In this document: in pieces, positions 4,286-5,625 of the stretch
How the letters are laid out: each line of letters opens with the position of its first letter
How positions within the stretch are numbered: position 1 is the first letter of the stretch
Program-made: the position numbers and the translations under genes
The notes under the pieces: model-generated
What the model saw: the letters and a program-made list of their open reading frames with translations, nothing else
What the model was told of the DNA's origin: nothing
The model's database searches: none
Sequence record: PP418986.1
DNA from: Escherichia phage UPWr_E2
DNA: 64,000 nucleotides
Reading direction: 5' to 3' (one strand)

Positions 4286-4846
4286 ATGATTAATAAAATT
4301 GTACATGAAATGGCTTTAAACGGAGATTCATATAAAATATCTGCCGTAGTTGAAAATTTCATACTTAATAAAGTAAAAGAATATTTCACTGATTGTTCAG
4401 TTAGTTATCAAGAAAAAATGGTTTTAATTGATGATACTGAAAAATCAAATAATTTGTTTTGCTCTAATTTTATAACTAAGAAGCGTACTAGAAGATTTGA
4501 TATTGTTATTTCTCGCAACGGTAAAAAGCATATAATTGAAATTAAACATCAAGTTGGTGGAGGTACAGCTATTGATTCGGTTGGAATATATTTAGAAGAT
4601 AAAGAGAAATTAAAAGAATACACAAAAACTGAAAACCCTGTGTCATTGATGATATTAGATTTTTTGCCATGCGGATATTATCCACGTAATAAATGGACAA
4701 AAAGAGAATCATTTACTGATAATCCAACTATTCAGGCGAGGTTTAATGAATATGCTAAATCACAAAACGTGTTAGTATTACTATCAAATACATATGATGA
4801 AGAATTATATAATTCGTTTTTTGCTGCAATAAATGAGAGAATATAA
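4286..4846 (+). CDS. hypothetical protein with PD-(D/E)xK nuclease-like motif
   Basis: 186 aa; motif [17 protein letters not shown] (D-x13-E-x-K); stop overlaps dam start (TAATG). Confidence 0.5.
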
Positions 4847-5625
4847 TGCTAGGAGCTATCGCGTATACAGGTAATAAACAGTCATTATTACCTGAACTTA
4901 AGCCTCATTTTCCAAAATATGACAGATTCGTGGATTTATTTTGTGGAGGTTTATCAGTGTCTTTGAACGTCAATGGTCCTGTATTGGCCAATGATATTCA
5001 AGAACCAATTATTGAAATGTATAAGCGTCTTATTAATGTATCATGGGATGACGTATTAAAAGTAATAAAGCAATATAAACTATCAAAAACATCAAAAGAA
5101 GAGTTTTTGAAATTACGTGAAGATTATAATAAAACTAGAGATCCTCTTTTACTTTATGTTCTTCATTTTCACGGATTTAGTAATATGATTCGTATAAACG
5201 ATAAAGGAAATTTTACTACTCCGTTTGGAAAAAGAACTATAAACAAAAATAGTGAAAAACGCTTTAATCACTTTAAACAAAATTGTGATAAAATAATCTT
5301 TAGTTCATTGCATTTTAAAGATGTCAAAATTCTAGACGGCGATTTTGTATATGTGGACCCTCCATATCTTATAACAGTTGCTGATTATAATAAATTTTGG
5401 TCAGAAGAAGAAGAAAAAGACCTTTTAAATCTTTTAGATTCTTTAAATGACAGAGGAATAAAATTTGGACTGTCGAATGTTTTAGAGCATCACGGAAAGG
5501 AAAACACTCTTCTTAAAGAATGGTCTAAAAAATATAATGTTAAGCATCTTAATAAAAAATACGTCTTTAACATATATCATTCCAAAGAAAAGAATGGAAC
5601 TGATGAAGTATATATTTTTAATTAA
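4846..5625 (+). CDS. dam: DNA adenine methyltransferase Dam
   Basis: 259 aa; DPPY catalytic motif and FCGG SAM-binding motif; matches T4 Dam. Confidence 0.9.

Follow-up and report, generated by a model that had tools for sequence, protein, structure and literature searches.

The Dam methylase of phage T4 is a textbook orphan phage methyltransferase, and to our knowledge its biological role has never been clear. In some relatives of T4, an additional open reading frame (ORF) lies directly upstream of dam, which raises the question of what this ORF encodes and whether Dam belongs, or once belonged, to a two-gene system. We addressed this question in Escherichia phage UPWr_E2 (PP418986.1), using a 64,000-nucleotide stretch of its sequence (here called the window), which is a genome segment of a T4-like phage (Tequatrovirus). 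The initial annotation, made from the letters of the sequence, had taken the DNA for T4; the window comes from a close relative, and T4 itself keeps only the last 26 codons of the ORF in question.

Organization and expression signals of the locus

The features of the locus are collected in Table 1. Both the 186-aa ORF and the overlap of its stop codon with the start of dam, as described in the initial annotation, are present in the sequence, and so is the single early promoter that had been placed ahead of the two genes. The near-identical phage ASO78A carries an early-promoter annotation at the same site, the promoter is sigma-70-like by score, and 25 nt lie between the end of the pattern match and the ORF downstream. 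Across the window, the early-promoter pattern occurs at 16 sites, all on the plus strand, compared with 0.23 expected. Transcription from this one promoter would yield a bicistronic message, with dam translationally coupled to the gene ahead of it. A terminator-like hairpin (positions 4152 to 4171) lies between gene 61 and the cassette, upstream of the latter.

Table 1. Features of the nuclease-dam locus, with positions given in the window
Feature	Position	Strand	Basis or description
Gene 61 (primase)	end at 3989		
Accessory cassette, 1.47 kb (promoter, nuclease-fold gene, and dam, between genes 61 and 56)	4198-5665	+	Comparison with Sf21
Left copy of 8-bp direct repeat ATCACAAA, T4 deletion junction	4211-4218	+	BLAST of the T4 61-dam spacer against the window
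T4-type early promoter GTTTAC...TATGGTATTAT, serving the nuclease-fold ORF and dam	4231-4260	+	Pattern match to GTTTAC-N18-TAnnAT
Shine-Dalgarno sequence GAGGA, 7 nt before the ATG of the nuclease-fold ORF	4274-4278	+	Read from sequence
Nuclease-fold ORF, 186 aa, ATG start	4286-4846	+	phrog_8706, function unannotated in PHROGs
E23 codon, helix 1, candidate metal-binding acidic residue	4352-4354	+	Invariant in family alignment A4
Catalytic-motif region F71-K87 (D72 on strand 2, E85-x-K87 on strand 3)	4496-4546	+	Alignment and model
Right copy of 8-bp direct repeat ATCACAAA	4759-4766	+	BLAST of the T4 61-dam spacer against the window
TAATG stop/start overlap of the nuclease-fold ORF and dam	4844-4848	+	Read from sequence
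dam, 259 aa, D12-class N6-adenine methyltransferase, DPPY at residue 171	4846-5625	+	Pfam MethyltransfD12, E = 6.5e-51
Gene 56 (dCTPase)	next after dam		

The extent of the cassette was delimited by comparison with the cassette-less Shigella phage Sf21, which aligns to positions 3400 to 4197 and 5666 to 6218 of the window with an unrelated spacer of ∼40 bp between the two blocks. The GC content of the cassette is 27%, compared with 35% for the window. The nuclease-fold ORF is a real gene and is under the same constraint as dam, judging from sequence comparisons among alleles: dN/dS is 0.02 to 0.06 for the nuclease-fold gene (five intact alleles) and about 0.03 for dam, and the nuclease-fold genes of the window and of phage G28 are separated by 18 synonymous and 2 nonsynonymous differences.

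Several other elements were observed around the cassette. In an inverted repeat (CTCAGC...GCTGAG; positions 4238 to 4278; −12.1 kcal/mol; z, −2.2), one arm falls in the promoter spacer and pairs with the other in the Shine-Dalgarno region of the nuclease-fold ORF. Since the early promoter starts transcription downstream of the 5′ arm, the ribosome-binding site would be masked in transcripts that read through from gene 61 but not in promoter-proximal ones. On the minus strand, a hydrophobic 66-aa antisense ORF (positions 3986 to 4186; phrog_2024, E = 4e-31) overlaps the last 4 nt of gene 61, including its stop codon, and is preceded by a GGAGGA ribosome-binding site and, just upstream, a late-promoter-like box (GATAAATA). 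The same ORF is intact in T4 (locus L002, 3239 to 3439), where it is ∼96% conserved and unannotated in NC_000866. As it occurs in cassette-less phages too, it is not part of the cassette. At the other end, the mechanically called ORF of gene 56 (positions 5671 to 6204; 177 aa) has a TTG start; related records use the ATG at 5686, preceded by AAGGAAA and giving 172 aa, and this is probably the true start.

Predicted fold and sequence family of the 186-aa protein

The initial annotation had pointed to a D...ExK motif with 13-residue spacing, and residues 71 to 87 indeed contain it: E85 (codon at 4538 to 4540) lies 13 residues after D72 (4499 to 4501) and is followed by K87 (4544 to 4546). The bare motif, D-x(8-20)-[DE]-x-K, is not diagnostic, being present in 71% of shuffles of the nuclease-fold protein and in 33 of the 46 window ORFs of at least 150 aa. 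When the motif is required to stand in a hydrophobic strand context, it is found in 0.4% of shuffles and in 2 of those 46 ORFs. Furthermore, E23, D72, E85, and K87 are invariant among nine family sequences (29 to 63% identity), and an HQ-x3-GTAIDS segment after the motif is likewise invariant in an alignment that reaches 29% identity.

Structure prediction and a Foldseek search, both proposed in the initial annotation, bear on what had been a guess from one motif. A confident AlphaFold2 model built on eight family sequences (pLDDT, 83.9; pTM, 0.81) contains the alpha-beta-beta-beta-alpha-beta core of PD-(D/E)xK nucleases, that is, the restriction-endonuclease core; the D/E/K residues of the motif, together with the helix 1 glutamate, are those invariant across the family. 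The Foldseek matches listed for the PDB are PD-(D/E)xK nucleases, with MunI as the closest structure among them, and the best structural and profile matches of the protein are type II restriction enzymes. The model thus supports the assignment of the protein to the PD-(D/E)xK restriction-endonuclease fold, with metal-dependent cleavage as its predicted activity.

Sequence-family searches gave fainter signals. The top Pfam family of the window protein is DpnII, at 15.7 bits (E = 0.0096) and thus short of the gathering threshold of 23 bits; DpnII is also the top family in four of nine phage members (best E, 8.3e-5), and RE_BanI, HSDR_N, and PDDEXK_11 match more weakly than DpnII. In PADLOC, the type II restriction endonuclease model REase_II reaches a best E value of 5.3e-6 in the phage family, a match that falls short of the curated threshold. 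Using hhalign, we compared alignment A4 with 17 DpnII-family proteins; the match (E = 5.6e-4, with a probability of only 29.8%) covers 91 columns of the catalytic core only and sets E23, D72, and E85 opposite E152, D201, and E214, which are invariant in the DpnII family. For this comparison, a DpnII sequence checked against Pfam (E = 2.7e-100) was used solely to retrieve real family members. These signals are below threshold but agree with one another, and on that ground we assigned the protein to the PD-(D/E)xK restriction-endonuclease fold. A distant and minimal kinship with DpnII is possible, as opposed to demonstrated membership in that family.

Searches with phmmer and with a profile against PDB sequences yielded no meaningful match to the protein, MunI included, and a search of NCBIfam returned noise only. 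Neither Pfam nor PHROGs placed a GIY-YIG, HNH, or LAGLIDADG domain in the protein. The class of free-standing T-even homing endonucleases (Seg/Mob, with GIY-YIG or HNH domains) was set aside as an assignment, since no such domain is present and the predicted fold is PD-(D/E)xK.

We also looked at the relatives of the partner methylase. The nearest plasmid relatives of T-even Dam are AlwI-/FokI-type IIS methylases of Gram-positive bacteria, at 38 to 43% identity (L021, L024, L025, L026, and L028); this kinship may be the reason that the phage gene is called fokIM by some annotation pipelines. Dam-family methylases of enterobacterial plasmids share only about 20 to 31% identity with T-even Dam. 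A route to DpnII-family genes through these plasmid relatives was dropped, as it led to AlwI-/FokI-type IIS methylases or to unannotated neighbors.

Distribution, pairing with dam, and loss of the nuclease gene

A profile search of 1.84 billion representative proteins gave 12 matches, all of them family members, fragments, or assembly chimeras. In three metagenomic proteins (P0008, P0010, and P0016), fragments of the ORF are fused to unrelated domains or repeats, such as an epimerase N terminus or a 765-aa tandem repeat; these look like assembly or gene-calling chimeras and were left out of the family alignments. Nothing further was found by a profile search of a 5.8-billion-protein set, and 185,579 bacterial and archaeal species genomes contained no relative of the nuclease-fold protein. 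IMG/VR and metagenome contigs held near-identical or KPV15-like copies only. A match is present in 163 phage records. Six of them are from Klebsiella phages, among which the one we examined, KPV15, is a Jiaodavirus, and the rest are Tequatroviruses infecting Escherichia, Shigella, Yersinia, Salmonella, and Serratia. The family is very small and was found only in glucosyl-hmC T4-like phages. Genes for dCMP hydroxymethylase and glucosyltransferase are present in the carriers whose wider genome was examined, and the cassette-less Sf21 has them as well.

In all eight lineages from which DNA could be retrieved (the window, P0002, P0005, P0006, P0009, P0011, P0013, and KPV15), the nuclease-fold gene lies immediately upstream of a T4-Dam-like D12 methylase gene, which it abuts or overlaps by 0 to 35 nt. 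At least three genomic neighborhoods hold the pair. In the window and its close relatives, it sits between genes 61 and 56. In KPV15, where the 61-56 slot contains nothing, it is found between denB and ndd, and in contig L015, it directly precedes rIIA. Identities to the window proteins range from 35 to 63% for the nuclease and from 52 to 76% for the methylase, and they rise and fall together; the two genes have thus moved and diverged as a unit.

Within Tequatrovirus, the locus exists in several states. About 146 to 148 records have the intact cassette, and about 310 (estimated by proportion of the ranked list) are without it. In about 35 further records, T4 among them, dam is kept and the nuclease gene is deleted. 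In T4, the 548 bp between the two copies of the direct repeat are gone, comprising the early promoter and codons 1 to 160, and the remaining codons can still be read upstream of dam. Four further independent lesions affect the nuclease gene and leave dam intact: a 1-bp deletion near codon 179 in T2, a 1-bp deletion in G4500, a 356-bp deletion in KarlGJung, and a 4-bp insertion in ESCO58. Among about 183 carriers, none was seen to have the nuclease gene without dam. If lesions fell at random according to gene length, the probability that all five would hit the nuclease gene is ∼0.01, a rough estimate, as the genomes are related and not independent and some of the 1-bp changes could be sequencing errors.

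Orphan methylases typically arise from restriction-modification systems by loss of the restriction gene and retention of the modification gene. The pattern of lesions is suggestive of such asymmetric decay. The initial annotation had treated T4 Dam as an orphan methylase, and this holds insofar as T4 has no partner gene; its solitary state, on the other hand, can be traced to the 548-bp deletion, and since the remnant is still in place, T4 Dam is probably an orphan by secondary loss. From these genome comparisons, T4 Dam looks like what remains of a restriction-modification cassette of two genes after deletion of the nuclease gene.

The surroundings of gene 56 hold other nucleases. In the cassette-less phage WL-3, a homing endonuclease gene occupies the 61-56 slot (L020, 858 to 1508), and in T4, segF lies just beyond gene 56 (L002, 1107 to 1781); segF is absent from the window. 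The region around gene 56 is a hot spot for accessory nuclease genes.

No other 4-bp palindrome in the window is depleted nearly as strongly as GATC, of which 75 sites are observed and 216 expected (ratio, 0.35). Sf21 (L032, 1 to 50000), which has neither the nuclease gene nor dam, shows a ratio of 0.32. We therefore rejected GATC depletion as a signature of the cassette: with the cassette-less relative equally depleted, avoidance of GATC is lineage-wide and does not result from the presence of the cassette.

Possible functions of the pair and comparison with known systems

The predicted fold, the invariant residues, and the conserved pairing with dam make a restriction-modification-like pair, as suggested in the initial annotation, the best-supported reading, the pairing having been kept in every lineage across relocations in the genome. 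We put the probability at roughly 55% that the nuclease-fold ORF and dam constitute a type II-like GATC restriction-modification cassette in virulent glucosyl-hmC T4-like phages. In such a cassette, the 186-aa protein would be a metal-dependent PD-(D/E)xK DNA endonuclease with E23, D72, E85, and K87 as its active site, probably acting as a dimer in the manner of MunI and other small enzymes of type IIP. Its site, most likely GATC without N6-methyladenine, would be masked by Dam, so that Dam would mark the phage's own GATC sites as self and the nuclease would cut unmarked DNA. Here, we infer cleavage, GATC specificity, blocking by N6-methyladenine, and the biological target, the specificity because of the Dam partner and the weak DpnII signal. 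The hosts named in the carrier phage records are enterobacteria, which are generally Dam+. The host chromosome, the obvious target, would therefore already be methylated, which complicates the classical restriction-modification picture; the cassette would more likely act on competing DNA, namely, unmethylated GATC sites in coinfecting phages (including cassette-less T-even relatives), in plasmids, or in dam-deficient hosts.

Glucosyl-hmC DNA withstands 94% of type II enzymes in vitro (PMC7653180). With such resistance, the phage may be able to protect itself without Dam, and unless the nuclease tolerates hmC, the classical restriction-modification logic is weakened. A further point against this reading is that Dam may be kept simply for a use of its own. 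The T4 record gives GATC, in C- or hmC-DNA, as the methylation site of T4 Dam. The tight long-term linkage of the two genes implies that Dam matters to its carriers, and this suggests that the nuclease may act on hmC-DNA and be aimed at related phages without the cassette. In this reading, which we consider unlikely, the nuclease would cut glucosyl-hmC (or nascent hmC) GATC sites that lack Dam methylation, Dam would be indispensable, and the cassette would be both a weapon and a gene drive against cassette-less T-even relatives. If it were true, cassette-less T-even genomes (roughly two-thirds of the relatives) would be shredded or converted in mixed infections, and Dam would have its first functional rationale in T-even phages. 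Viable dam mutants have been obtained in T2 and T4, and the lesions in the nuclease genes of both phages would then explain that viability.

Other functions for the upstream gene were weighed against a restriction-modification cassette. In mixed infections, a free-standing homing-type or marker exclusion endonuclease could cut the DNA of cassette-less relatives in or close to their empty 61-56 site and spread the cassette by recombinational repair, with Dam as cargo or as protection of the target site only. We regard this as improbable, since homing enzymes track their target gene and not a methylase, whereas here the nuclease gene is paired with Dam in three unrelated genomic contexts; the affinity to type II restriction enzymes also speaks against it, as does the T4 deletion, a simple microhomology event with no precise element boundary. 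A strand-specific nickase resembling MutH, acting at hemimethylated or unmethylated GATC in phage mismatch repair or in the priming of recombination-dependent replication, would be expected to show the same linkage to Dam and would fit early expression beside replication genes, and MutH is itself a small PD-(D/E)xK enzyme responsive to the Dam methylation of GATC. MutH, of the MutH/Sau3AI family of GATC nickases, was not the closest structure to the nuclease-fold protein, and we likewise hold this function to be improbable.

The protein might also not cleave DNA at all, serving as a DNA-binding or regulatory partner that, for example, targets or controls methylation by Dam, or having an unrelated function. 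Some PD-(D/E)xK proteins are noncatalytic, and the support for a nuclease consists of fold and linkage, with catalysis predicted; however, four canonical active-site residues that stay invariant over deep divergence would be unexpected in a degenerate fold, and T4 Dam works alone in a phage without the nuclease gene, making a noncatalytic partner quite improbable. The logic could finally be inverted, as in DpnI: Dam would complete the methylation of host cytosine-DNA, the nuclease would cut G(m6A)TC, and glucosyl-hmC would spare the phage DNA. The enterobacterial hosts, which are generally Dam+, carry the mark, the carriers whose wider genome was examined have the hmC and glucosyltransferase genes, and glucosyl-hmC blocks most nucleases (PMC7653180). 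Against this stand the single compact nuclease domain of the model, with no separate methyl-reader domain, and the preference of DpnII, the closest profile family, for unmethylated GATC; moreover, host Dam would make a phage dam redundant, and T4-like phages already have DenB as a nuclease for host DNA. A methylation-dependent nuclease is thus very improbable in our judgment.

The idea of a restriction enzyme at this locus is not wholly new, as one GenBank record, that of vB_EcoM_Shinka (MZ502379.1), labels the gene [quoted passage not shown] In the other annotating records examined, the gene is hypothetical or a "head outer capsid protein"; the latter label, found in GADU22 (OQ944321.1) and T2 (AP018813.1), is evidently a mistransferred annotation. 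In an incomplete literature collection, we found no paper on the gene in searches covering the gene, phage Shinka, and restriction enzymes of T4-like phages. What appears to be new is a minimal family with a restriction-enzyme fold and predicted activity, confined to hypermodified virulent phages, and the reinterpretation of T4 Dam as what is left of a decayed cassette. If the upstream gene does encode the cognate endonuclease, T-even Dam would be the modification component of a mobile restriction-modification cassette, and the orphan state in T4 would be a deletion accident of a laboratory lineage. A virulent, hypermodified phage with its own restriction enzyme would then point to conflict between phages, or between phage and plasmid, within the infected cell and not to host defense. 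Biochemistry would gain a new and very small (186-aa) restriction endonuclease family that is possibly tolerant of hmC or glucosyl-hmC, and interference between phages with and without the cassette could occur in Tequatrovirus therapy cocktails.

Among known systems, the one that ranks first in Pfam for the phage proteins is the DpnII/MboI family (type IIP; PF04556), whose enzymes cut unmethylated ^GATC and have Dam-class methylases, DpnM for example, as partners. The E-(helix), RFD(I/F)VI, and IE(I/V) motifs of the phage family align with E152, D201, and E214 of DpnII, and the partner of the phage nuclease is likewise a Dam-class GATC methylase. However, the phage protein has 186 aa compared with about 288 aa in DpnII, lacking ∼120 N-terminal and ∼60 C-terminal residues, and the alignment is confined to the central ∼90 columns; in place of the ExN of DpnII, the phage proteins show a classical ExK, and the phage gene lies upstream of a single methylase gene on a virulent phage. 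MunI, considered together with EcoRI-like type IIP enzymes that leave 4-nt 5′ overhangs, is the closest structure but shares 12% sequence identity with the phage protein and recognizes CAATTG; the likeness is one of predicted structure alone.

The closest functional analogue is found in chlorella virus PBCV-1, which has an early GATC restriction-modification pair, CviAI, consisting of M.CviAI (A581R) and the endonuclease A579L (PMC7248222). Both systems are virus encoded and early expressed and combine a GATC methylase with an endonuclease, which in the phage is putative; PBCV-1, in contrast, is a eukaryotic algal virus with unmodified cytosine, and the comparison made here is one of gene content and expression. 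The role of CviAI is thought to be the degradation of host DNA. T4 Dam, for its part, is treated among the phage orphan modifiers in a 2025 review of restriction-modification biology (PMC12707154). It is the same enzyme as the window methylase, the two genes being separated by about 6.5 nonsynonymous differences, but in the window and in about 146 related genomes, the methylase has a nuclease-fold partner encoded directly upstream.
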